A stretch of DNA of 33,615 nt from a virus (taxonomy: Duplodnaviria > Heunggongvirae > Uroviricota > Caudoviricetes), in the IMG/VR virus record IMGVR_UViG_2563366821_000007; one strand, written 5' to 3'. The notes beneath the pieces were generated by a model. The model was not told the origin of the DNA, ran no database searches, and saw only the letters and a list, made by a program, of their open reading frames with translations. Below, piece after piece: positions 2,133 to 20,765 of this stretch. Numbering within the stretch: position 1 is the first letter of the stretch; each line of letters begins with the position of its first letter. The position numbers and the translations under genes are program-made.

Positions 2133-2678
2133 TCATTGATTCACCTCCTGCGGCGGTTCTGGCAGCGGCATCCAGTGGGTTACCTCCTTGAGATACAGGT
2201 CTTCGCCATCACCGTCATCCCAAGTGGGCTTGCCATCATTAAACCAGTCGCCATATACGCCGACCTGAGTGTTGGGGATGTTTGGTGGGTAGTTGTTTTT
2301 AAAGTCAGCAGCTAACACATAGCATTGTCGCTCTCCCATTTCTGGCATTCGCTCACTACAGCTTATCCAACTCTCCGGAGTTACCGGAGAGTTGCCAGCC
2401 TCATACGCCACACGCATCCAGTGCATAAGCGTTTCAGTGCTCACACAGCCGCAATCAACATCAATTTTGCCGTGCTGCTGTTCCAGCCATTGCTCAAAAG
2501 TTAACTTGTAAGTTTGGCTTACAGGTTCTGCACTATCAGCTTCGCGCCGCTTCTGTAGCTCTGCTGCCATCGCTCTCACGACTTCAACTGGTGCCCTTGC
2601 CGCAAACTCTATGTTGGTGATCAGCTCATTAAGATATTGCTCGCCTGGATACTGTTTCTTATCGGTTATAGTGGTCAT
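2133..2678 (-). CDS. DUF551-like phage protein
   Basis: 181 aa; C-terminal THWMPLPEPP motif characteristic of DUF551 family proteins of lambdoid early regions; ATG overlaps the upstream stop (ATGA). Confidence 0.6.
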   Translation of the reverse strand: MTTITDKKQYPGEQYLNELITNIEFAARAPVEVVRAMAAELQKRREADSAEPVSQTYKLTFEQWLEQQHGKIDVDCGCVSTETLMHWMRVAYEAGNSPVTPESWISCSERMPEMGERQCYVLAADFKNNYPPNIPNTQVGVYGDWFNDGKPTWDDGDGEDLYLKEVTHWMPLPEPPQEVNQ

Positions 2679-4035: not shown

Positions 4036-4635
4036 TCACTCTCCTTTGATGCGAATGCCAGCGACGCGTAATGCGTGTTCTAGGTCAATCAGGTAAAGCC
4101 AACTGCCATTTTCTTTAGGTATCATGACATGTCGCTCATCTGCATTTATCGGGTGTCCATATCGAAGGTCGTAGCGAGTCGGTAATTGAACTTCCCGCGC
4201 TTCCAGTTCAGCAATACGCTTGCACCCATCAGAGATAACTCCCTCGTAATACTCGCGCTGCTCGTTGAGTTTTGATTTTGCTGCTTCAAGCTCAACGAGC
4301 AGCTTCCCAACCGTAAGCGCAATATCCTCGTTCTCCTGGTCGCGGCGTTTGATGTATTGCTGGTTTCTTTCCTGTTCATCCAGCAGTGCCAGCACGGTAG
4401 CCGGGTTAGCCTCTGCTATGAATTCAGCGTTTGCATAAGCCTGAGCATCTGATTCAATCAGGCAGTTAACATGACATTCCGCAATCACGCCACCGGGTTC
4501 TCCTTTCCATTTTTGACAAACAAAAACTCCTGTTAAATTGCCGTGCTGGTTAACAGATGTATGCCCTACGATGTAGCTTCCTTTAGTTGCTTTCTCTGCC
4601 TTTTCACGCAGTGCCTGATAGTTAATCTCGCTCAC
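4036..4635 (-). CDS. Ead/Ea22-like phage protein
   Basis: 199 aa, GTG start with GGAGG 7 nt upstream; N-terminal INYQALREKAEKAT and central coiled-coil resemble Ea22-like proteins of lambdoid early-left regions; paralogous to 4853..5440. Confidence 0.65.
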   Translation of the reverse strand: MSEINYQALREKAEKATKGSYIVGHTSVNQHGNLTGVFVCQKWKGEPGGVIAECHVNCLIESDAQAYANAEFIAEANPATVLALLDEQERNQQYIKRRDQENEDIALTVGKLLVELEAAKSKLNEQREYYEGVISDGCKRIAELEAREVQLPTRYDLRYGHPINADERHVMIPKENGSWLYLIDLEHALRVAGIRIKGE

Positions 4636-7442: not shown

Positions 7443-7491
7443 TTGCAGCAATCCAGCCCATTTGACATGGGATGATTGCTGCAATTTTTTT
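7443..7491 (+). terminator. Intrinsic-terminator-like hairpin (11-bp perfect stem, T7 tail on plus strand)
   Basis: TTGCAGCAATC (7443-7453) and GATTGCTGCAA (7474-7484) are perfect reverse complements, followed by TTTTTTT; lies between the rdgC-like stop and the HD gene start, oriented to stop rightward (antisense) transcription. Confidence 0.4.
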
Positions 7492-8407
7492 AAGTTGTTG
7501 GATTTTGGCTTTTATCTTCTTTGTAAGAAAGAAGGTCACACATCAAATTAACTACCTTGCTGAATTGGAAAAGGTCAGCGCCAGTCTGATGACGCCACTG
7601 GAATGCTTTATCATCTTCATCATTAAATGTCTGAGATTGAGTATTGATGCGCGAAAAATGGAAATTTTCGGTAAGAATGAAGGTCACACCGCAACCGGAT
7701 AACTCCATTTTATCAGCAGTGAAACTACTACTAAGGCTATCGGCCAGTTCGCTTTGAATTGACTCATGCTCAGCTGAGTAGCGAATAATTTCCTTTTGAT
7801 CTGCGTAGCGTGATAGCTGAATATAATTTCCGACAGTGAATCCTTCAAATGCATTGGCTGCACCATTGATGTAGTTATTCAGGCGTGTAGTCAGTCCATT
7901 CTTGATATCACTGATGTTGATTGTTTCTGTTTTCACTGAACCGACAACCTTAATCAGCATTGCGCATACCATACCGGCTATTATTTTATTGGTTGTGTTG
8001 ATTACCAATAATTTCTCATCAGTGCTGTACAATGCAAGAATCAGAGTAGACTTAACAAATGCCTGTTTGCATAGATCTACTCGTACGTTATCAATAATGG
8101 CCAGTCGTTCGGCACGCTTTAATTTATTCCCGGACATATTTTCGGTTGTTTGGATTCGAGAATTAGCTTCTTTCATGACGACATGTCGGGGAATTATTTT
8201 CTGATCATGACGGATTACCATTGCGTACCCACCAGATATCGGAGTTACCAGTTCACCAGTGACAGGATTCTCTACAAAAGAGGACCGTGAAAATTCTGTT
8301 TCCCCGATTTCAGAATAAGGGAGTTCGAGAAGATGACCTTCAATAGCCTGTATACTAGGTAATGTTGCTCGGTACACAATTGCGTTACGAAATTTTGGTA
8401 ATTTCAT
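7490..8407 (-). CDS. rdgC: RdgC-like recombination-associated protein
   Basis: Start reset to ATG 8405-8407 (MKLPKFRNAIVYRATLPS), resembling the RdgC N-terminus (MLWFKNLMVYRL...); about 305 aa as expected for the family; AT-rich. Confidence 0.6.
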   Translation of the reverse strand: MKLPKFRNAIVYRATLPSIQAIEGHLLELPYSEIGETEFSRSSFVENPVTGELVTPISGGYAMVIRHDQKIIPRHVVMKEANSRIQTTENMSGNKLKRAERLAIIDNVRVDLCKQAFVKSTLILALYSTDEKLLVINTTNKIIAGMVCAMLIKVVGSVKTETINISDIKNGLTTRLNNYINGAANAFEGFTVGNYIQLSRYADQKEIIRYSAEHESIQSELADSLSSSFTADKMELSGCGVTFILTENFHFSRINTQSQTFNDEDDKAFQWRHQTGADLFQFSKVVNLMCDLLSYKEDKSQNPTT

Positions 8408-8441
8408 TCTATTTTCCTCTGCACAATGTATTAGTTTCTCC

Positions 8442-8530
8442 ACAAAACAGAGAAGAACACCTGCGGTGGCAGCCGCCCGGATGGATTGGGTTATGAGCCC
8501 GTCGTCCGGTGATGCTCTTCTCTGTTTTGT
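8442..8530. repeat. Inverted repeat with 15-bp perfect arms and 59-bp spacer
   Basis: ACAAAACAGAGAAGA (8442-8456) and TCTTCTCTGTTTTGT (8516-8530) are exact reverse complements; the spacer has its own CCGGA/TCCGG stem; located just upstream of rdgC in a non-coding stretch. Confidence 0.5.
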
Positions 8531-9050
8531 AAAAAGAGCGGTACCAGCCGGAAGCAAGTGTACAAACTGGTACCGCCAAAGCAGTGGCTGTTGTGGTGGG
8601 GTTGTCACTCAGGCGTATGGTCAACCTGACAACCCGGTGTCCTCAACGGGGAAAGAGTAACCCCGCCATACTTACCGCCGCGCCATTTCGCGGATTACCA
8701 CAACGCTGAGAGCACTTAGCCAGTTACGGCACCACACTTTGTCGCGGTTCCATAAATGCCCTCATCGTTGCACCCTGGTCTCTTCCCAGGCGTCAAACCG
8801 AATCGCCACGCTGGTTAGGCGTCTTATCAGCATCCTCATTGACTTGCACATTCCGGCTATCTGGTTTGTTTGCCCGAGCAAGGAGTGGATTGTCCCCTTT
8901 AACGTCCCCAGACCGCTAACGACGCATGTGCCATACGCCGTGTTACAACCAAATTTTGTTAGTACCTTGTTTGTAGGTCTGGAGAGAAAGATAAAATGAA
9001 GTTGCGCATTATGCAAGTGTTTTATTGCGAGATAAGCAATTTGGTGGGTA

Positions 9051-9073
9051 ATGAAAAGCCACCTTCTGGTGGC
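9051..9073 (-). terminator. Rho-independent terminator downstream of the cI-like gene
   Basis: GCCACC-TTCT-GGTGGC hairpin (9058-9073); on the minus strand it is followed by a U-rich tract (UUUUCAUU); sits 23 bp after the cI stop. Confidence 0.5.
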
Positions 9074-9095
9074 TAATTGATGTTGAGGTAGGGGG

Positions 9096-9788
9096 TTAAT
9101 TGTGTCGCTTAAGGGTCTGTGACTGACTGATTAAGACCTTTCCAAAGACCATAAACCGGTGTTCGTTTTCGCTGGTAATTCCCCATTCGCGGTAAATCTG
9201 ATTATCAGAAATTACCAGCAGTTTATCAGGTATCATTTGCAGTCGTTTGACGTAAATTTTATCATCAAAACCAAATACATATATACCATCCCCATCAAAC
9301 TGATTGATACTGATATCAACGAAGATGAGATCTCCTGGCTCAATGGTTGGACACATACTGTCCCCACGAACGTTGATAACTTTAATGTGATTTGCTGGTC
9401 GTCCACCAAACATCGATACAGCATTATCAGTTCTGTATTCAATGGCATGAATCACATCAATGACATCACCGCCCTGGATAAGGCCATTTCCCGCACTGGC
9501 ACTGACATCCAGCATTTCAATACGGAATACATCCTTCACCTGCGTAACATCCTCACTAATACTGTTTTTACATACAGTATTACTTTTGAGGTCTGAGGTA
9601 AAGAGATCAGCAATATCAACACCTAAGCTCCTGGCAATATTACTCAGGGCTTGTTCAGTGAATTGTTTCTGCTTACCTGTTTCGAGGCGCGAGATATTCG
9701 CCGCATCCACTCCTATTGCTTCAGCGAGATCGGCGATTTTCATGTTCTTCGCCTGGCGAAGTTGTCTGACTCGATTTCCTATGTTCAT
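9096..9788 (-). CDS. cI: CI-type prophage repressor (HTH_XRE N-terminus, S24 LexA-like peptidase C-terminus)
   Basis: 230 aa; N-terminal helix-turn-helix (IADLAEAIGVDAANISRLETGK); C-terminal S24 signature with catalytic Ser in GDSMCPT and Lys in YVKRL; divergent from a cro-like gene. Confidence 0.85.
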   Translation of the reverse strand: MNIGNRVRQLRQAKNMKIADLAEAIGVDAANISRLETGKQKQFTEQALSNIARSLGVDIADLFTSDLKSNTVCKNSISEDVTQVKDVFRIEMLDVSASAGNGLIQGGDVIDVIHAIEYRTDNAVSMFGGRPANHIKVINVRGDSMCPTIEPGDLIFVDISINQFDGDGIYVFGFDDKIYVKRLQMIPDKLLVISDNQIYREWGITSENEHRFMVFGKVLISQSQTLKRHN

Positions 9789-9885: not shown

Positions 9886-10146
9886 ATGCAATCACCATTA
9901 CGGAATGTGCGTAAGGCGCACGGATTTACTTTGCAGCATGTTGCTGCGGGCGTTCAGGTCAATCCAGCGACGCTGAGTCGTATTGAAAGACTGGAACAAA
10001 TTCCATCTATCGATCTTGCAGAACGTCTGGCCAATTTTTTTAAGGGTGAAATCAGCGAAATGCAGATTCTTTATCCGGCACGTTTTCAATCTAGCCAAAA
10101 CCAGAATGGGTTTAAACCACAGGAACAGGAGGTAAGCCGTGGGTAA
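9886..10146 (+). CDS. cro: Cro-like HTH_XRE regulator
   Basis: 86 aa; ATG 9886 with GGAGG upstream; HTH (FTLQHVAAGVQVNPATLSRIERLEQ); first gene rightward of the operator. Confidence 0.65.
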   Translation: MQSPLRNVRKAHGFTLQHVAAGVQVNPATLSRIERLEQIPSIDLAERLANFFKGEISEMQILYPARFQSSQNQNGFKPQEQEVSRG

Positions 10147-10696
10147 GCATCATTGGAAAGTGGAAAAACAACCTGAGTGGTACGTGAAAGCTGTCAGAAA
10201 AACTATCGCGGCATTGCCTGGGGGTTACGCTGAAGCTGCTGACTGGCTGGATGTAACAGAGAACGCTTTATTCAACCGCCTTCGTGCAGATGGCGATCAG
10301 ATTTTCCCGCTGGGATGGGCAATGGTTTTACAGCGCGCGGCTGGCACTCACTACATTGCGGATGCTGTCGCACAATCTGCTGGTGGGGTGTTCGTATCGC
10401 TTCCTGAAATTGAGGAAGTAGAGAACGCCGATATAAACCAGCGCCTGCTGGAAGTCATCGAACAGATCGGGAATTACTCAAGGCAGATTCGTTCGGCAAT
10501 CGAAGATGGGGTCGTGGAGCCACACGAGCAGACAGCAATTAATGATGAGTTGTATCTGTCAATTTCGAAGCTCCAGGAGCATGCAGCACTGGTCTACAAA
10601 ATCTTTTGCGCTCCAGAAAAGAGTGACGCCCGCGAGTGTGCAGCTCCGGGCGTCGTGGCGTCGATTGCTTCTGGTTGTGGAGAAACTAACGCATGA
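10139..10696 (+). CDS. Putative CII-family phage regulatory protein
   Basis: 185 aa; GTG start after AGGAGG, overlapping cro end; position (third gene of the right operon) and the ALFNRLRADGDQIFPLGWAMVLQRAAGTHY segment recall phage regulatory CII-family proteins; identity not verified. Confidence 0.4.
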   Translation: MGKHHWKVEKQPEWYVKAVRKTIAALPGGYAEAADWLDVTENALFNRLRADGDQIFPLGWAMVLQRAAGTHYIADAVAQSAGGVFVSLPEIEEVENADINQRLLEVIEQIGNYSRQIRSAIEDGVVEPHEQTAINDELYLSISKLQEHAALVYKIFCAPEKSDARECAAPGVVASIASGCGETNA

Positions 10697-11841
10697 ACAG
10701 TTTAACGGCAAATAACCGTTTGTCGCAACAGCTGGTGGTCAGCGTCGCTGAACACCTGTTGTTACGGCATGAATGCAGATTACCAAATCACCTGGCTGTA
10801 AGTAACCACAGAGAACTTTACCTGACTGTGGGGGGCGAGTTGTGCAGGAACTTAACCGCTGGTTTCGTGACGGAAGAGGACTTTATGTTCATGTTATTCG
10901 TTGGGAGCCAGAAACACAGCGCGTTATCTATCTTCGCAAAGACTACCAGCATGAGTGCTTTAGTCCTTTGTGGAAATTCAGGCGTGATTTTGTTGAGTGT
11001 GAAGGACCACCAGCACATTGATTCTGCCATTCCGGGACGTTACACTGTTCAGGCACCTTATAAAGCGGGTGTCGGGATTGGCGTCCTGGAATTGCATACG
11101 GCGACAATTGGCGCGTTAGCGTCTTTTTTGTTGCTACAACTCAGCTATACCCAAATTATGGTGGGCTGGGTGGGGGCACCGAAAGGTGCGCCGGTTTCCG
11201 TATGCGCCGGTTACGCCAACCCTGCTCAGTTCACCACCAGCGAAATTGGCGTTTCCGGTGGTGGAAGTTATCCATTGCATACGGAGGCTGCCATCATGGC
11301 TACGATCCCAACCCTCACTCAACCTGAAATTGCCATCGTTGATGGTCAGGCTGTTACTTCATCCCTGGCTGTTGCCAACTTCTTCTCCAAACGTCATGAC
11401 GATGTACTGAAAAAGATCCGCACGCTTGAATGTTCCGCATCATTCACTGCCCGCAATTTTTCGGTGAGTGATTACACCGATTGCACAGGCCGCAAACTAC
11501 CTTGCTATCAAATAACCCGCGACGGCTTTGCGTTTCTTGCTATGGGTTTCACGGGTAAACGTGCTGCCCAGTTCAAAGAGGCATACATCAATGCCTTTAA
11601 CCAGATGGAGAAACAGCTTTCAAAGCCCGCTGTACCGAGCGACGTTGCACATAACGCCAGCGTTCTCTATTCCTACATTTCATCAATTCATCAGGTCTGG
11701 CTGCAGCAGCTTTATCCTATGTTGGCAAAAGCCGAATCTCCGCTGGCTGTTAGCTTGTATGACTATATTAATGATGCTTCGGCGCTGGCCTGCCTCATAA
11801 ATTTGTCGCTGAATCCTTCAGAGGTAAGGGGGCGTAAATGA
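10693..11841 (+). CDS. Rha-family phage regulatory protein (N-terminal extent uncertain)
   Basis: Rha-like signature GQAVTSSLAVANFFSKRHDDVLKKIRTL begins after ATG 11296 (GGAGG 8 nt upstream). The track frame is open from ATG 10693 (ATGA-coupled to the CII-like stop), but the upstream 600 nt contains an overlapping 59-codon alternative frame (10842..11021) and a terminator-like hairpin (11110-11129). Confidence 0.55.
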   Translation: MNSLTANNRLSQQLVVSVAEHLLLRHECRLPNHLAVSNHRELYLTVGGELCRNLTAGFVTEEDFMFMLFVGSQKHSALSIFAKTTSMSALVLCGNSGVILLSVKDHQHIDSAIPGRYTVQAPYKAGVGIGVLELHTATIGALASFLLLQLSYTQIMVGWVGAPKGAPVSVCAGYANPAQFTTSEIGVSGGGSYPLHTEAAIMATIPTLTQPEIAIVDGQAVTSSLAVANFFSKRHDDVLKKIRTLECSASFTARNFSVSDYTDCTGRKLPCYQITRDGFAFLAMGFTGKRAAQFKEAYINAFNQMEKQLSKPAVPSDVAHNASVLYSYISSIHQVWLQQLYPMLAKAESPLAVSLYDYINDASALACLINLSLNPSEVRGRK

Positions 11842-12719
11842 TCCGGAATATTTTCAAACTGTTTACCAATCGCCACCAGCATATTGATTCTGCAATTCCG
11901 GGACGTTACACTGTTCAGGCACCTTATAAAGCGGGTGCCGGGATTGGCGTCCTGAAATTGTCAACGGCGATGTATGACGCGCCAGCGTCTTTTTTATCGT
12001 CCGCATTTGCTCACATCCAGATTATGGTGGGCTGGGCGGGGGCACCGAAAGGTGCGCCGGTCTCCGTTGACGCCGGTTACGCCAACCCCGTCCAGTTCAC
12101 CACCAGTGAAATTGGCGTTTCCGGTGGTGGAAGTTTTTCACTGTCAACGGAGGCTGCCATCATGGCTACGATCCCAGCCCTCACTCAACCTGAAATCACC
12201 ATTGACAACGGCCAGGCCGTTACCACTTCTTTGGCTGTTGCCAACTTCTTCTCCAAGCGTCACGACGATGTGCTGAAAAAGATCCGCACTCTGGATTGTT
12301 CCCCTGAGTTTTGTGCCCGCAATTTTGCGGAGACATCGATTTCGGTAAATCAACCGAACGGTGGTACACGCAAGCTCCTTTGCTATCAAATCACACGAGA
12401 CGGTTTTGCGTTTCTTGCTATGGGTTTCACGGGTAAACGTGCTGCCCGGTTCAAAGAGGCATACATCAATGCCTTTAACCAGATGGAAAAACTGCTTTCA
12501 AAGCCATCCACGCTGAGCGATGCCGCAGATAACGCCAGCGTGCTTTACTCCCACCTGTCGGTAATCCACAAGGTCTGGCTGCAGCAGCTTTATCCCATGT
12601 TGGCAAAAGCCGAATCCCCGCTGGCTGTAAGTCTGTATGACCGCATCAACGACGCGGCGCTACTGGCCAGTCTCATAAATTTGTCGCTGAACCCTTCAGA
12701 GGTAAGGGGGCGTAAATGA
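11838..12719 (+). CDS. Rha-family phage regulatory protein (tandem paralog)
   Basis: 293 aa; ATG overlaps the upstream stop (ATGA); C-terminal 185 aa paralogous to 11296..11841 (Rha-like motif GQAVTTSLAVANFFSKRHDDVLKKIRTL); 5' 320 nt conserved with the upstream copy; alternative start ATG 12162. Confidence 0.6.
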   Translation: MIRNIFKLFTNRHQHIDSAIPGRYTVQAPYKAGAGIGVLKLSTAMYDAPASFLSSAFAHIQIMVGWAGAPKGAPVSVDAGYANPVQFTTSEIGVSGGGSFSLSTEAAIMATIPALTQPEITIDNGQAVTTSLAVANFFSKRHDDVLKKIRTLDCSPEFCARNFAETSISVNQPNGGTRKLLCYQITRDGFAFLAMGFTGKRAARFKEAYINAFNQMEKLLSKPSTLSDAADNASVLYSHLSVIHKVWLQQLYPMLAKAESPLAVSLYDRINDAALLASLINLSLNPSEVRGRK

Positions 12720-20023: not shown

Positions 20024-20099
20024 GGCCCTTTAGCTCAGTGGTGAGAGCGAGCGATTCATAATCGCCAGGTCGCTGGTTCAAATCCAGCAAGGGCCACCA
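20024..20099 (+). tRNA. tRNA with CAT anticodon (Met or lysidine-modified Ile2-type)
   Basis: Cloverleaf read by eye: 7-bp acceptor stem GGCCCTT/AAGGGCC, anticodon stem GCGAT/ATCGC with loop TCATAAT (anticodon CAT), T-loop GGTTCAAATCC, 3' CCA encoded. Confidence 0.8.
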
Positions 20100-20106
20100 T
20101 CACATA

Positions 20107-20183
20107 CCGCCATTAGCTCATCAGGATAGAGCGCCAGCCTTCGAAGCTGGTTGCGCGGGGTTCGAGTCCTCGATGGCGGTCCA
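20107..20183 (+). tRNA. tRNA-Arg (anticodon TCG as read)
   Basis: Acceptor CCGCCAT/ATGGCGG, U8, D-stem GCTC/GAGC, anticodon stem CCAGC/GCTGG with loop CTTCGAA (anticodon TCG), T-loop TTCGAGT, CCA encoded; C1:G72 base pair is unusual and the anticodon should be confirmed computationally. Confidence 0.7.
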
Positions 20184-20196
20184 TTATCTGTACCCT

Positions 20197-20273
20197 GCGT
20201 TATTAGCTCAGCCGGACAGAGCAATTGCCTTCTAAGCAATCGGTCACTGGTTCGAATCCAGTACAACGCGCCA
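20197..20273 (+). tRNA. tRNA-Arg (anticodon TCT)
   Basis: Acceptor GCGTTAT/ACAACGC (one mismatch), anticodon stem ATTGC/GCAAT with loop CTTCTAA (anticodon TCT), T-arm ACTGG-TTCGAAT-CCAGT, CCA encoded. Confidence 0.8.
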
Positions 20274-20289
20274 GACTTATTTTTCCCGG

Positions 20290-20318
20290 CTCGCTTTTGC
20301 GGGCTTTTTTTTAAATGT
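20290..20318 (+). terminator. Rho-independent terminator after the tRNA cluster
   Basis: GCTCGC-TTTT-GCGGGC hairpin (one G-U pair) followed by T8. Confidence 0.6.
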
Positions 20319-20765
20319 CTCACAATTCAGACGGTTGACAGTTGTCTGTTTTGCGGGGAGTTTGTTAAAAGAAACTGGCATGGTGAATCCCCCTGTGCGG
20401 AGGGGCAATCAGCAACTGGTGTTTTGTCACCGACCCTTATCCTTTCTGTGCGGGTTCAGGTGCTGATACTGAACTCACCGGGAGGCACCCGGCATCATGT
20501 GCATGATGATACAGATACGCGGCTTTAGCCCCTCTCCGGAGGGGCTTTCTTGTGGGCAAAAAAAAGCCCGAGTGGGTTCGGGCAACAGCATGAGATATAC
20601 ATTTTTATAATCGAATGGATTTTAACCAGAATTCATAAGGCTGCGCAACTGCGCGGTCTTTTTCGAATTGCGGGCTGTCGTCTCTCTTCTGCCATTGTCC
20701 TGTAACTTCCGGACTTCAGCCCGCTCCTTATTTTACTCACAATATTATCCCGGCCGGGAGGATTC

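Follow-up and report, generated by a model that had tools for sequence, protein, structure and literature searches.

Background

In λ, the early-left promoter PL is followed by a long untranslated leader, which carries an RNA element and an RNase III-sensitive structure and precedes the first early-left gene. Work on DicF, a small RNA that blocks cell division, spans 35 years and has treated it as a curiosity of a defective prophage. In E. coli K-12, the 5' end of the 190-nt "long DicF" is made by RNase III, and this processing influences how stable the upstream transcript is; an internal promoter for DicF was not found, and dicB is expressed via partial read-through of the DicF terminator, which gives transcripts of 1,146 nt and 1,608 nt (PMC10448788). 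In E. coli K1 RS218, an mEp460-like prophage specifies sRNA-17, a 193-nt RNA seen by RACE and Northern blot, and ArcA binds to a fragment upstream of sRNA-17 at protein concentrations of 20-80 µM (PMC7719688). The put RNA of HK022, taken here as the only known RNA antiterminator family in lambdoid phages, requires no phage protein and remains with the polymerase even once it has been cut from the transcript; zinc-binding-domain mutations in the β' subunit of RNA polymerase block its suppression of terminators in cis (PMC9378689).

The locus considered here lies in a 33,615-nt stretch of Caudoviricetes DNA (IMG/VR record IMGVR_UViG_2563366821_000007), the whole of which is called the window. 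An initial annotation had described a structured non-coding stretch at the place where an N-type antiterminator gene would be expected, and had proposed that it holds an antiterminator RNA or a regulatory small RNA.

Extent and folding of the gap

Positions 8409-9095 form a gap of ~690 bp, with no credible gene, between the cI-like repressor ORF (9096-9788, with its gap-side end at 9096) and the first early-left gene, an RdgC-like gene on the minus strand (7490-8407; start codon ATG at 8407-8405). The product of this gene matches phrog_724 (E 2.5e-76), and RefSeq annotates rdgC in an E. coli record that is 100% identical; a Shine-Dalgarno sequence, AGAGGAAAA, can be read together with the ATG at 8405-8420 (minus). 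For the minus-strand RNA of 8409-8990 the folding energy is -224.9 kcal/mol, compared with -190.6 ± 6.2 for shuffled sequences (z -5.55; 0 of 100 shuffles as good), and the plus strand of the gap gives a folding z of -3.8. The stretch is structured, as had been suggested; its RNA structure is real and conserved, and lies on the leftward strand. Its stems recur in related prophages with compensatory changes, a point on which the earlier proposal could have failed. Conserved RNA modules make up the gap as a mosaic: C, then B with a DicF-like RNA, then A, all on the minus strand and read leftward from PL. We hold the anatomy and homologies of these modules with high confidence.

The individual hairpins that had been noticed are present, although one had been misplaced. 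A repeat search finds an inverted repeat, I1, with arms of 25 nt at 8442-8466 and 8506-8530 (84% complementary), the outer part of which is the pair of perfect 15-nt arms reported at 8442-8456 and 8516-8530. Repeat I4, GCGGTACCAG/CTGGTACCGC, pairs 10/10 at 8538-8547/8567-8576. The 9-bp stem I7, GGGTTGTCA/TGACAACCC, also pairs fully (9/9), but at 8599-8607/8627-8635, ~7 nt off the reported 8606-8642. As candidates for an antiterminator these hairpins do not survive: 8538-8576 is an intrinsic terminator, 8599-8635 is a hairpin of the module upstream of DicF, and 8442-8530 is a separate three-way junction. An element of the small-RNA type is indeed present, in the form of a long DicF/sRNA-17 homologue. 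The reported hairpins fall in B, in the DicF-like terminator and in A, and none is in C; the candidate that could modify RNA polymerase is instead the pseudoknotted RNA at 8708-8948, which had not been singled out. A gathering-score scan of the whole window with Rfam 15 assigns no family to the gap, and the covariance-model search that the initial annotation had called for, run with Rfam 15 on 8200-9300 at E <= 10, returns noise only.

Directly after the cI-like ORF, a terminator scan finds the intrinsic terminator hairpin of the cI-like transcript, AGCCACCAGAAGGTGGCT followed by TTTTCATT (9057-9074, minus). A probable OL/PL region can be read from the sequence at 8988-9039 (minus). It contains two operator-like palindromes, TTGC-N7-GCAA, at 9039-9025 and 9016-9002, a motif that is seen again between the cI-like gene and cro, and a putative PL with a -35 element TTGCAT (9016-9011), a -10 element TATCTT (8993-8988) and a start near 8980. 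Since this PL is only a weak match to consensus and was not flagged by the consensus promoter scan, it is counted as a putative promoter. DNA homology with phages of other immunity types begins at 8960, which fits an immunity-specific promoter upstream of that position. Between the DicF-like terminator (T1) and rdgC the promoter scan shows no promoter-like site.

Module C: structure and covariation

Module C is a structured RNA of ~241 nt (8708-8948, minus) with six helices and two pseudoknots. Helix P1 (8940-8933/8927-8920) has the loop GGCAC, and P2 (8916-8909/8863-8856) encloses a variable insert. These are followed by an invariant strand, UAGCCGGAAUGUGCAAG (8859-8843), the variable hairpin P3, P4 (8822-8819/8811-8808, loop CUAACCA), P5 (8790-8786/8778-8774, loop GAAGAGA), and P6 (8763-8756/8715-8708), the last deduced by eye from the window, phiV10, L033 and L168 sequences. 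PK2 joins 8816-8813 to 8799-8796, and the proposed PK1 joins 8931-8928 to 8849-8846. A covariance model, R1, finds C once in the 33.6-kb window, at 8750-8948 (minus), with 150.2 bits (E 2.5e-44); the window sequence is itself one of those in the seed alignment. The window copy has every element by which the R1 family is defined (P1, P2, P4, P5, PK1, PK2 and the strand UAGCCGGAAUGUGCAAG).

In an alignment of 37 diverse members, 97.5% of the cells are paired, and pairing drops to 23-43% when the partners are slid by 1-3 columns. Double changes occupy 72 cells, compared with 22.5 ± 4.1 in shuffles (0 of 500 as high). G-U pairs are numerous in the helices and fit the minus strand only, two examples being U:G at columns 34:44 in 36 of 37 sequences and G:U at 56:121 in all 37. 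In PK2 one pair varies in a compensatory way, being C:G in 34 sequences and A:U in 3. The four pairs of PK1 are almost invariant, so covariation neither supports nor refutes them, and this pseudoknot is proposed from complementarity.

C is a real structured RNA family, and it is uncatalogued. Rfam returns noise only around the copy in Enterobacter locus L168 (E <= 5) and nothing but tRNAs at the P1 and phiV10 loci (gathering score), and a full-text literature search with four conserved strings of C retrieved no paper. Two smaller readings of conserved segments were rejected. A leader peptide at CAACGAUGAGAGCAUU fails because an AUG is lacking in many members that preserve the nucleotides, and because P6 has this segment as its 5' strand. 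An RfaH ops-like reading of GGGUAGCC fails because the window itself has AGAUAGCC.

Module C: distribution and neighbourhoods

An invariant 17-mer of C occurs in more than 120 viral contigs among the matches listed, a lower bound; these matches reduce to 115 unique sequences, which fall into 38 clusters at 92% identity. Among genome loci, 23 are confirmed by R1, of which 22 are from Enterobacterales and one is a 1.7-kb contig labelled Bacillota; independent genome loci score 119-197 bits. Non-enterobacterial matches to the 17-mer in genomes are negative with R1 and are set aside as chance, ~70 being expected by arithmetic. The family is large in enterobacterial temperate phages of the lambdoid, P1/P7 and epsilon15-like types, with members in P1, phiV10, the cdtI phage, mEp460, Ayreon and Stx2 phages. 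With members in P1, in epsilon15-like phages and in phages that are Stx2- or cdt-converting, it is directly accessible to genetic work.

The surroundings of C vary in an instructive way. A DicF-type terminator hairpin lies within 1 kb 3' of C in at least 68 of the 115 unique members listed (at least 59%), at a median distance of 283 nt; members in P1/D6 and others have C without such a hairpin downstream. Conversely, C is absent from the canonical dicBF phages Qin, PPompW and mEp460_ev081 when they are searched with R1 with filters off. In P1/D6, C is directly flanked by tRNA genes (tRNA-Ile lies upstream in P1); in P1 it is also far from the promoter, and a DicF-like terminator is located ~2 kb upstream of C, which therefore cannot serve it. 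In epsilon15-like phages, tRNA-Arg(UCU) is downstream. The order in phiV10 is C, tRNA-Arg, T1, T2 and an ORF, and since the U-run of T2 lies only ~17 nt before the start codon, this ORF can be expressed by read-through only; a consensus promoter scan upstream of C in phiV10 found none. By reading of the sequence, loci L034 and L114 have a promoter, TTGACA-18-TACATT, that would start the transcript a few nt before helix P1, and L011 has TTGACC-17-GATACT ~50 nt before it. The genes 3' of C are heterogeneous between members, which argues against a gene-specific riboswitch, and that candidate was dropped.

Module B and the DicF-like RNA

Module C adjoins an RNase III-type stem in the window, P6 directly abutting it. 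This stem, GUUGUGGU (8704-8697) with ACCACAAC (8597-8590), also found as repeat I14, closes module B, the structured region upstream of DicF (8599-8704, minus). Inside it are three hairpins, including the GGGUUGUCA/UGACAACCC hairpin at 8635-8627/8607-8599 seen previously. B (~106 nt) is ~90% identical to the K-12 Qin sequence just 5' of DicF (L006 3985-4107; 90% over 123 nt), and relative to K-12 the closing stem has one compensatory pair, U:A to C:G. By arithmetic, the boundary of homology with Qin coincides with the expected start of a 190-nt RNA that ends at the DicF terminator. The 3' part of the DicF-like RNA follows (8531-8598, minus; CACCACAACAGCCACUGCUUUGGCGGUACCAGUUUGUACACUUGCUUCCGGCUGGUACCGC, then UCUUUUU) and includes terminator T1, whose stem (8576-8567/8547-8538; -20.7 kcal/mol) leads into the U-tract UCUUUUU at 8537-8531.

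Together, B and the DicF-like RNA span ~174 nt (8704-8531, minus) and have the layout of a long-DicF-type precursor locus, that is, a stem-closed upstream module and then an intrinsic terminator, within an early-left operon. From sequence comparison, 8704-8531 is judged to be a homologue of K-12 long DicF and of sRNA-17. In the alignment with K-12 DicF, UUUGGCGGUA.CAGUUU is kept and 19 nt carrying the DicF seed are missing; the 5' seed UUUCUGGUGAC, which pairs with the ftsZ, xylR and pykA mRNAs, is absent from the window. The Rfam DicF model (RF00039) finds no match in 8200-9300 at E <= 10, while K-12 DicF, as positive control, scores 76.7 bits; consequently, ftsZ is probably not a target of the DicF-like RNA.

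The 3' 66 nt (8533-8598) are identical to the rows called "degenerative sRNA-17" in the supplement of PMC7719688, and the 5' part differs. The sRNA-17 rows in that supplement begin with gttgtggtg and end with ...ctggtaccgctctttt; by our own reading of them, sRNA-17 extends from the GUUGUGGUG stem to the U-tract of T1. The version of module B that forms its 5' part is a different one, and its authors would for that reason class the window copy as degenerative.

Module A

Module A (8442-8530, minus), which corresponds to repeat I1, is a long hairpin just before rdgC. Its 20-bp outer stem, ACAAAACAGAGAAGAGCAUC/GGUGUUCUUCUCUGUUUUGU, surrounds a three-way junction that has GGGCUCAUAACCCAAUC as a near-invariant loop. 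The module is conserved in SfV, SfII, ST64B and other phages, and its G-U pairs fit the minus strand only. In the diverged copies L095 and L022 the stems are kept through A:U to C:G and G:C to C:G changes, and the inner stem CCGGA/UCCGG has become CCAGG/CCUGG. Since its 3' arm ends in UGUUUUGU, A may be a second terminator or a processing site.

A possible role for C in terminator read-through

Our preferred reading, put forward tentatively and with somewhat less than even confidence as a whole, is that the gap is the untranslated PL-operon leader of a lambdoid prophage of the SfV/cdtI/mEp460 type, in which C acts in cis for read-through. Transcription would start at the putative promoter, near 8980, and proceed through C (8948-8708), the DicF-like RNA (8704-8531, ending at T1) and A (8530-8442) before it reached the rdgC ribosome-binding site. 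If processing resembles that of the dicBF transcript in K-12, RNase III would cut at the GUUGUGGU/ACCACAAC stem near 8704 and so free C from the DicF-like RNA. Transcripts would either end at T1, giving the small RNA, or continue into rdgC and the other early-left genes. C would act in cis on the transcribing complex, as HK022 put does, enabling polymerase that has started at PL to pass T1 and hairpin A. In this way C would stand in for the missing N protein.

This model draws support from the position of C, which is always 5' of the terminators, and from the lack of an N-like protein. It is also favoured by the phiV10 ORF behind T2, by the absence of a promoter-like site between T1 and rdgC in the promoter scan, by the promoters read before P1 in L034, L114 and L011, by the heterogeneity of the genes 3' of C and by a local resemblance to stem I of put. 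The ORFs overlapping the gap in a mechanical list are all short, and PHROGs scans of these and of 15 leftward ORFs between xis and rdgC, a set that stops short of the likely integrase ORF (75-1361), match no antiterminator family; the early-left matches are to RdgC, 5'-nucleotidase, excisionase and families of unknown function. The unrelated phage types that share C have a single host group in common, as would fit a conserved host target. On the other side, the leader RNA of the gap is G-rich and C-poor, so that protection from Rho may be unneeded, and PL matches the consensus weakly. C occurs once in the window and lacks a counterpart in the PR operon, neither covariance model links it to put, canonical dicBF phages do without it, the DicF-like terminator of P1 is out of its reach, and its neighbours, tRNA genes and an RNase III-type stem, suit an excised RNA at least as well.

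Alternative roles for C

Nearly as likely as action in cis is a reading with the same anatomy, in which C is a stable structured RNA released from the early transcript; RNase III would do the cutting here, and P1 and epsilon15-like phages would use tRNA processing. Its target, reached in trans beside the DicF-like sRNA and phage tRNAs, would be one of the host or of a defence system, and read-through of T1 would be leaky, as at K-12 dicF. The tRNA genes that directly flank C in P1/D6 and phiV10-like phages and the RNase III-type stem in the window point this way, as does the modular movement of C between unrelated phages, irrespective of gene neighbourhood. Its six helices, two pseudoknots and long invariant single strands are typical of RNAs that bind a partner, in P1 it is far from the promoter, and in K-12 partial terminator read-through expresses dicB without C (PMC10448788). 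However, a trans-acting RNA leaves unexplained the protein genes that follow two strong terminators so closely that a promoter would not fit.

It is distinctly unlikely that C has no function of its own and is a scaffold or leader for the folding, the RNase III/RNase E processing or the stability of the DicF-like precursor. Such a role would suit the linkage of C to DicF-type hairpins in at least 59% of the members listed, the contact of P6 with the processing stem, and the effect of RNase III processing on upstream transcript stability in K-12 (PMC10448788). Yet canonical DicF loci lack C, P1/D6 and other members have C without a downstream DicF-type hairpin, and the invariant single-stranded segments and pseudoknots exceed what a spacer needs.

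Far less probable still is a function at the level of DNA, such as a recombination hotspot at module junctions, an array of binding sites, or the promoter and ArcA site of sRNA-17. Module boundaries do coincide with mosaic junctions between phages, and ArcA does bind upstream of sRNA-17, with protein at 20-80 µM (PMC7719688), but the compensatory changes and the strong G-U excess on one strand indicate RNA, and work on K-12 detected no internal promoter for DicF (PMC10448788).

A coding role for the gap, in which it would specify one or several small proteins such as the product of a plus-strand ORF of the phrog_3651/cdtI gp40 type or an N analogue, has equally little probability. One ORF, 8466-8660 (+), antisense over the conserved RNA modules, matches phrog_3651, a family of unknown function, with E 4.9e-38; its frame stays open over ~45 codons in all diverged copies translated, and hypothetical proteins are annotated in the gap of cdtI, mEp460 and Ayreon. 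The annotated ORF boundaries disagree between phages, however, and the window ORF has a GTG start and covers only positions 88-162 of the 162 in the profile. The stretch is ~89-99% identical as DNA in the phages checked, so the match may add little beyond DNA conservation. In the diverged copies both stem arms change together, altering amino acids while RNA pairing is kept at the helix positions compared. The other mechanical ORFs in the gap have no PHROGs match, and the ORF list contains no Arg-rich peptide. We therefore judge the coding reading spurious, and the hypothetical proteins that gene callers have placed over the RNA modules (phrog_3651, cdtI gp40, mEp460 gp36 and gp37) probably need correcting.

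That the gap holds an antiterminator RNA of the HK022 put family is the least probable reading: it has in its favour a position just 3' of PL in an N-less lambdoid phage and short strings shared with putL (ACGGCG, CAUGCGUCG, AGCG), but the put covariance model gives only noise in the window and three put-invariant segments are missing from C.

Comparison with known systems

The leader resembles the λ N/nutL leader in layout; an N gene was not found here, and an unsystematic look at the window noticed no hairpin of the λ boxB type. It shares with the dicBF operon of Qin the lambdoid early-left location, and in both the 3' end of the DicF-type RNA is a terminator that starts UUUGGCGGUA.CAGUUU. 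DicF of Qin differs in having the 19 nt with the seed UUUCUGGUGACG, which the window copy lacks, and in the 3' half of the terminator hairpin; furthermore, the place upstream that C occupies in the window phage is taken in Qin by the small genes ydfA, ydfB and ydfC. The locus shows DicF precursor architecture in intact-looking phages, joined to a far more elaborate RNA. sRNA-17 comes from the same locus in a sister phage. PMC7719688 treats it as an independent ArcA-controlled gene, and mentions neither kinship with DicF nor the upstream C; it is best read as a member of the long-DicF family.

The comparison with put was made with a covariance model, R2, built from six putL sequences. In control searches R2 scores 98.2 bits on HK022 putL, 95.7 on HK639 putL and 37.3 on HK022 putR (E 2.7e-8). 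Its best score in the window, searched with filters off, is 9.5 bits (E 0.8) at 10694-10771, which is noise, and it finds nothing in 8410-9095. Since R2 finds both putL and putR and nothing in the gap, the gap contains no put element. In the reverse search, R1 with filters off scores -0.4 bits on HK022 putL. The put consensus consists of two stems and the invariant segments CGAACGGCGCG, UAAACCAUGCGUCGG, GGCGGG, UCAGG and CGGCAAU; C does not conform to it, the last three segments being absent. There is a local resemblance between C and stem I of put, CGGCG...CAUGCGUCG..AGCG; ~0.3 shared 9-mers are expected by chance in a comparison of this size (arithmetic). A literature search on put-like or RNA-mediated antitermination yielded nothing relevant. 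Because C does not match the put model, antitermination by C is argued from its position.

In that position, just after PL in a lambdoid phage without N, and in being a structured RNA with invariant unpaired bases, C is like put. It differs in size and complexity (~241 nt, six helices and two pseudoknots, compared with ~70 nt and two stems), in being present once in the window and missing from the PR operon, whereas HK022 has the paired sites putL and putR, and in also adjoining tRNA genes, as it does in P1 and epsilon15-like phages. If C acts in trans, the phage would be making an abundant early product directed at some host function. If C makes polymerase resistant to terminators, it would explain early-left expression in a large group of N-less lambdoid phages and provide a second natural example of antitermination by RNA only. 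Somewhat less likely than not, C represents a second class of phage RNA, unrelated to put in structure, that would reprogram the transcription complex of the host alone. Such an RNA, put-like in action, ~3x larger and pseudoknotted, would permit read-through in the early-left leaders of N-less lambdoid phages (including Stx2- and cdt-converting phages), in the P1 ban operon and in a small epsilon15-like cassette, settings in which C travels with tRNA genes and with DicF-like sRNAs of varied seed regions.

Setting and content of the gap

The window is a lambdoid E. coli prophage; it belongs to the SfV/cdtI/mEp460 type and has late features resembling those of Stx phages (tRNAs, STnc100, and AsxR near 20 kb). 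The first early-left gene is RdgC-like (7490-8407, minus strand), while a cI-like repressor gene (9096-9788, minus strand) and cro (9886-10146, plus strand) lie on the other side of the gap; thus, positions 8408-9095 separate the end of the repressor gene from the first gene of the PL operon, and we infer PL at about 9016-8988. A 100% identical match to this interval occurs in E. coli strain SCU-172. G+C content within the gap is 0.51-0.57, versus about 0.39-0.45 in the flanks, and since the plus strand is C-rich from 8650 to 8950, the leftward RNA is G-rich.

The initial annotation described a hairpin-rich, non-coding gap without an N gene, and this description holds. Its three inverted repeats are all present: 8442-8466/8506-8530, in which the outer 15 nt are perfect; 8538-8547/8567-8576; and 8599-8607/8627-8635, which had been placed about 7 nt too far to the right. 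Leftward RNA from 8409 to 8990 has a folding z score of -5.55 relative to dinucleotide shuffles (the rightward strand of the gap, -3.8). ORFs in the gap are short, mechanical ones, and PHROGs scans of these and of 15 early-left ORFs reveal no antiterminator family. Of the two functions then proposed, a regulatory small RNA fits the hairpins that had been listed; an antiterminator RNA is a reasonable but tentative idea that concerns another part of the interval.

Elsewhere in the window, Rfam detects three tRNA genes and STnc100 (131.7 bits), with AsxR on the opposite strand, at 20024-20613, the layout seen upstream of stx in Stx2 phages. Rfam also detects two tandem isrK plus C4 antisense-RNA modules (11053-11241 and 11919-12107; 59-81 bits), each within the 5' portion of a long mechanical ORF (10693-11841 and 11838-12719). 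These look like a duplicated control module of the phage P1 immI antirepressor type, and the N-termini of the two ORFs are probably not coding.

A leader built of separate modules

The gap specifies a conserved, structured leftward leader composed of an RNA element, C (8948-8708), a homologue of long DicF/sRNA-17 that consists of module B (8704-8599) and a DicF-like 3' part with terminator T1 (8598-8531), and hairpin A (8530-8442); it contains no N, put, or Rfam family. BLAST searches against phages find 8431-8960 again, about 99% identical, in phages whose repressor and downstream genes differ, including cdtI, Ayreon, 2H10, and Stx2c phages. More distant searches divide the gap into pieces with separate distributions: about 8431-8598 (A) in SfV, SfII, SfIV, and ST64B; about 8582-8704 (B) in PPompW, Evi, and an Actinobacillus phage; and about 8698-8954 (C) in phiV10, TL-2011b, P1, P7, D6, SJ46, and SPN1S. 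At least one piece is present in 4742 of 5426 complete E. coli genomes.

Hypothetical proteins (phrog_3651, cdtI gp40, mEp460 gp36 and gp37, and Ayreon ORFs) have been called over A, T1, B, and C at window 8466-8660 (plus strand) and in comparison loci L002 (2775-3230) and L001 (3036-3589), mostly on the opposite strand and with inconsistent boundaries. These are probably mis-called genes.

Module B and the DicF-like RNA

In K-12, the sequence matching B sits between ydfC and dicB of the Qin prophage, immediately upstream of DicF and on the same strand. Alignment shows about 90% identity across three hairpins up to GUGACAACCC; the 19 nt bearing the DicF seed are missing from the window, which retains UUUGGCGGUA.CAGUUU past this point and ends in its own hairpin followed by UCUUUUU, a strong intrinsic terminator (T1, dG -20.7 kcal/mol). 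Unlike K-12 DicF, the window RNA has no ftsZ-pairing seed, and the Rfam DicF model, which detects K-12 DicF as a positive control, does not match it.

Two forms of DicF occur in K-12, one of 53 nt with a 5' end made by RNase E and one of 190 nt with a 5' end made by RNase III, and no internal promoter was found (PMC10448788). Homology with the window stops 190 nt upstream of the DicF terminator (about 4107 in Qin locus L006, window 8704). At this boundary module B is closed by an 8-bp stem, GUUGUGGU/ACCACAAC (8704-8697/8597-8590), with one compensatory pair relative to K-12, and RNase III would cut near 8704. The sRNA-17 of E. coli K1, which comes from an mEp460-like prophage and was mapped as a 193-nt RNA with RACE and Northern blotting (PMC7719688), and the window's B plus DicF-like RNA appear to be the same unit; window 8533-8598 is identical to rows of the sRNA-17 supplementary alignment, in which some rows start gttgtggtg and some end ...ctggtaccgctctttt (PMC7719688). 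Given the K-12 boundary, the closing stem, and the identity of 8533-8598 to sRNA-17 rows, the window is predicted to encode a ~174-nt equivalent of long DicF/sRNA-17, from 8704 to about 8531. The DicF-like half of the gap is a variant of a known RNA type, with sRNA-17 already on record from a sister phage. T1 would both form the 3' end of this sRNA and gate the early-left genes.

Module A and access to rdgC

Module A comprises a 20-bp stem around two inner hairpins and a near-invariant loop, GGGCUCAUAACCCAAUC; outer and inner stems are kept through compensatory changes in diverged copies (L095, L022, L089, and L123). It ends in UGUUUUGU, with the rdgC ribosome-binding site ~20 nt further on. 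Since a promoter scan reveals no promoter-like site between T1 and rdgC, expression of rdgC and of the genes after it seems to require transcripts that extend past T1 and hairpin A.

Structure and distribution of module C

Alignment of the window with P1, phiV10, and mEp460 shows long invariant strings between hairpins that change sequence while keeping their pairing. Scanning viral contigs for the invariant 17-mer TAGCCGGAATGTGCAAG retrieved C from at least 120 contigs, with 115 unique sequences in 38 clusters (92% identity) among the matches listed. Across 37 representatives (alignment A2), helices P1, P2, P4, and P5 plus a candidate pseudoknot, PK1 (28 pairs in all), are 97.5% paired, and shifting the partners by 1-3 columns lowers pairing to 23-43%. 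Double changes occur in 11 pairs (72 cells, versus 22.5 +/- 4.1 in shuffles, 0 of 500 being as high); the four pairs of PK1 are nearly invariant and so carry no covariation signal. In a second pseudoknot, PK2, the P4 loop CACC pairs with GGUG 12 nt downstream, with a compensatory change from C:G to A:U in the window and two related sequences. Near-universal G-U pairs establish the minus strand as the RNA sense.

Helix P6, the sixth of the fold, sits 3' of the aligned block (GAGGGCAU/GUGCUCUC in the window; UAAGCAU/GUGCUUA in L033, and analogously in L168). The 5' arm of hairpin A (AACAGAGAAGAGCAUCA, 8530-8506) resembles the P6 5' strand of other members, such as L062 (CAACAGGUAAGAGCAUUG), and these repeated stems may be sites of recombination between modules.

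R1, the covariance model of the family, finds one copy in the window (8750-8948, 150 bits). Of 46 hits in species-representative genomes it confirms 23, namely 22 from Enterobacterales and one from a short contig with a Bacillota label; the remaining 23 loci (22 without a match, one marginal at 19.6 bits) are as many as expected by chance. Because Rfam 15 has no entry for C and none of the papers searched contains any of four conserved strings of C, this widespread, structurally elaborate family, found in model phages, appears to be undescribed.

Lambdoid phages carry C ~200 nt after the cI-like gene. As read from the sequence, L034 and L114 have a TTGACA-18-TACATT promoter that would place the transcript start a few nt before helix P1; L011 has TTGACC-17-GATACT ~50 nt before it. 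In epsilon15-like phages, C lies on the strand opposite to the terminase and portal genes, in the space between them. In phiV10, C is followed in turn by tRNA-Arg(UCU), a DicF-type terminator, a second strong terminator, an ORF, and a third terminator, and the small conserved ORF (Sf6 gene 66-like) starts ~17 nt after the second terminator. The tRNA-Arg(UCU), unannotated, begins 2-3 nt after P6 in phiV10 (L005 2428-2504, minus strand, overlapping hypothetical gene PhiV10p04 on the other strand), L010, L023, L027, and L098.

In phages P1 and D6, C directly follows tRNA-Ile or tRNA-Met(CAU) and precedes ban or another ORF; phage P1 also has module B and a terminator adjoining Pban, annotated as a "dicF-like region." Between C and ban (L004 about 2420-2475, minus strand), GAUUUUCUGGUGAUGAC directly follows C and resembles the DicF 5' seed UUUCUGGUGACG.

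A DicF-type terminator hairpin lies within 1 kb 3' of C in at least 68 of the 115 unique members (median 283 nt), with a varied upstream "seed." Enterobacter L168 has the full order: C, a GUUGUGGUG...CACCACAAC stem, DicF-like RNA, and terminator. These hairpins share GGCGGU...ACCGCC CUUUU (L005, L011, L023, L035, L065, L082, L095, L168, and others), and the 20-30 nt before them vary by phage group (e.g., GCUGUGUGUAGUCU, CACCACAACAGCCACUGC). Judged by sequence, they look like members of one DicF-like sRNA family whose seeds can be exchanged.

The canonical dicBF phages Qin, PPompW, and mEp460_ev081 have ydfABC-like genes instead of C, and R1 finds no C in Qin. Just 5' of B in Qin (L006 about 4108-4125, minus strand), GUGCGCUUCC GGUUGUGGC resembles the P6 3' strand as in L011 (GGAGUGCGCUUCCAGUUGUG), so Qin may once have carried a C RNA.

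Possible roles of module C

Two readings of C account for these contexts about equally well. Our tentative prediction is that C acts in cis as a read-through element: C is always 5' of terminators, ORFs lie directly behind two terminators, N is absent, and one element is conserved in unrelated phages of one host group. Proteins encoded downstream vary widely (RdgC, Ban helicase, ParB-like, integrase, and many of unknown function), with no N-like protein among them. That C is instead excised as a trans-acting RNA is possible, if somewhat more doubtful; C sits right beside tRNA genes and the RNase III stem, lies downstream of a DicF-like terminator in phage P1, and has no copy at PR, and read-through of the DicF terminator happens in K-12 without C. 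Weaker alternatives are that C is a processing scaffold, that the gap encodes small proteins, or that its conservation reflects a DNA-level function.

Comparison with HK022 put

For comparison with put of HK022, its putL was placed by means of the Nun gene and the PMC9378689 numbering and then confirmed by BLAST; HK75, O276, and HK639 have putL annotated at the matching place. The first hairpins of putL and C share ACGGCG, CAUGCGUCG, and AGCG; at this scale of comparison a shared 9-mer is not unlikely. With filters off, R1 scores putL at -0.4 bits. R2, a covariance model built from six putL sequences, recovers the non-seed HK022 putR (E 2.7e-8) and yields only noise in the window, with nothing inside the gap; its best window match (10694-10771, plus strand, 9.5 bits, E 0.8), at noise level, lies just after the cII-like gene. 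C failed both tests as a member of the put family, and membership is rejected; an analogy of function between C and put may still hold.
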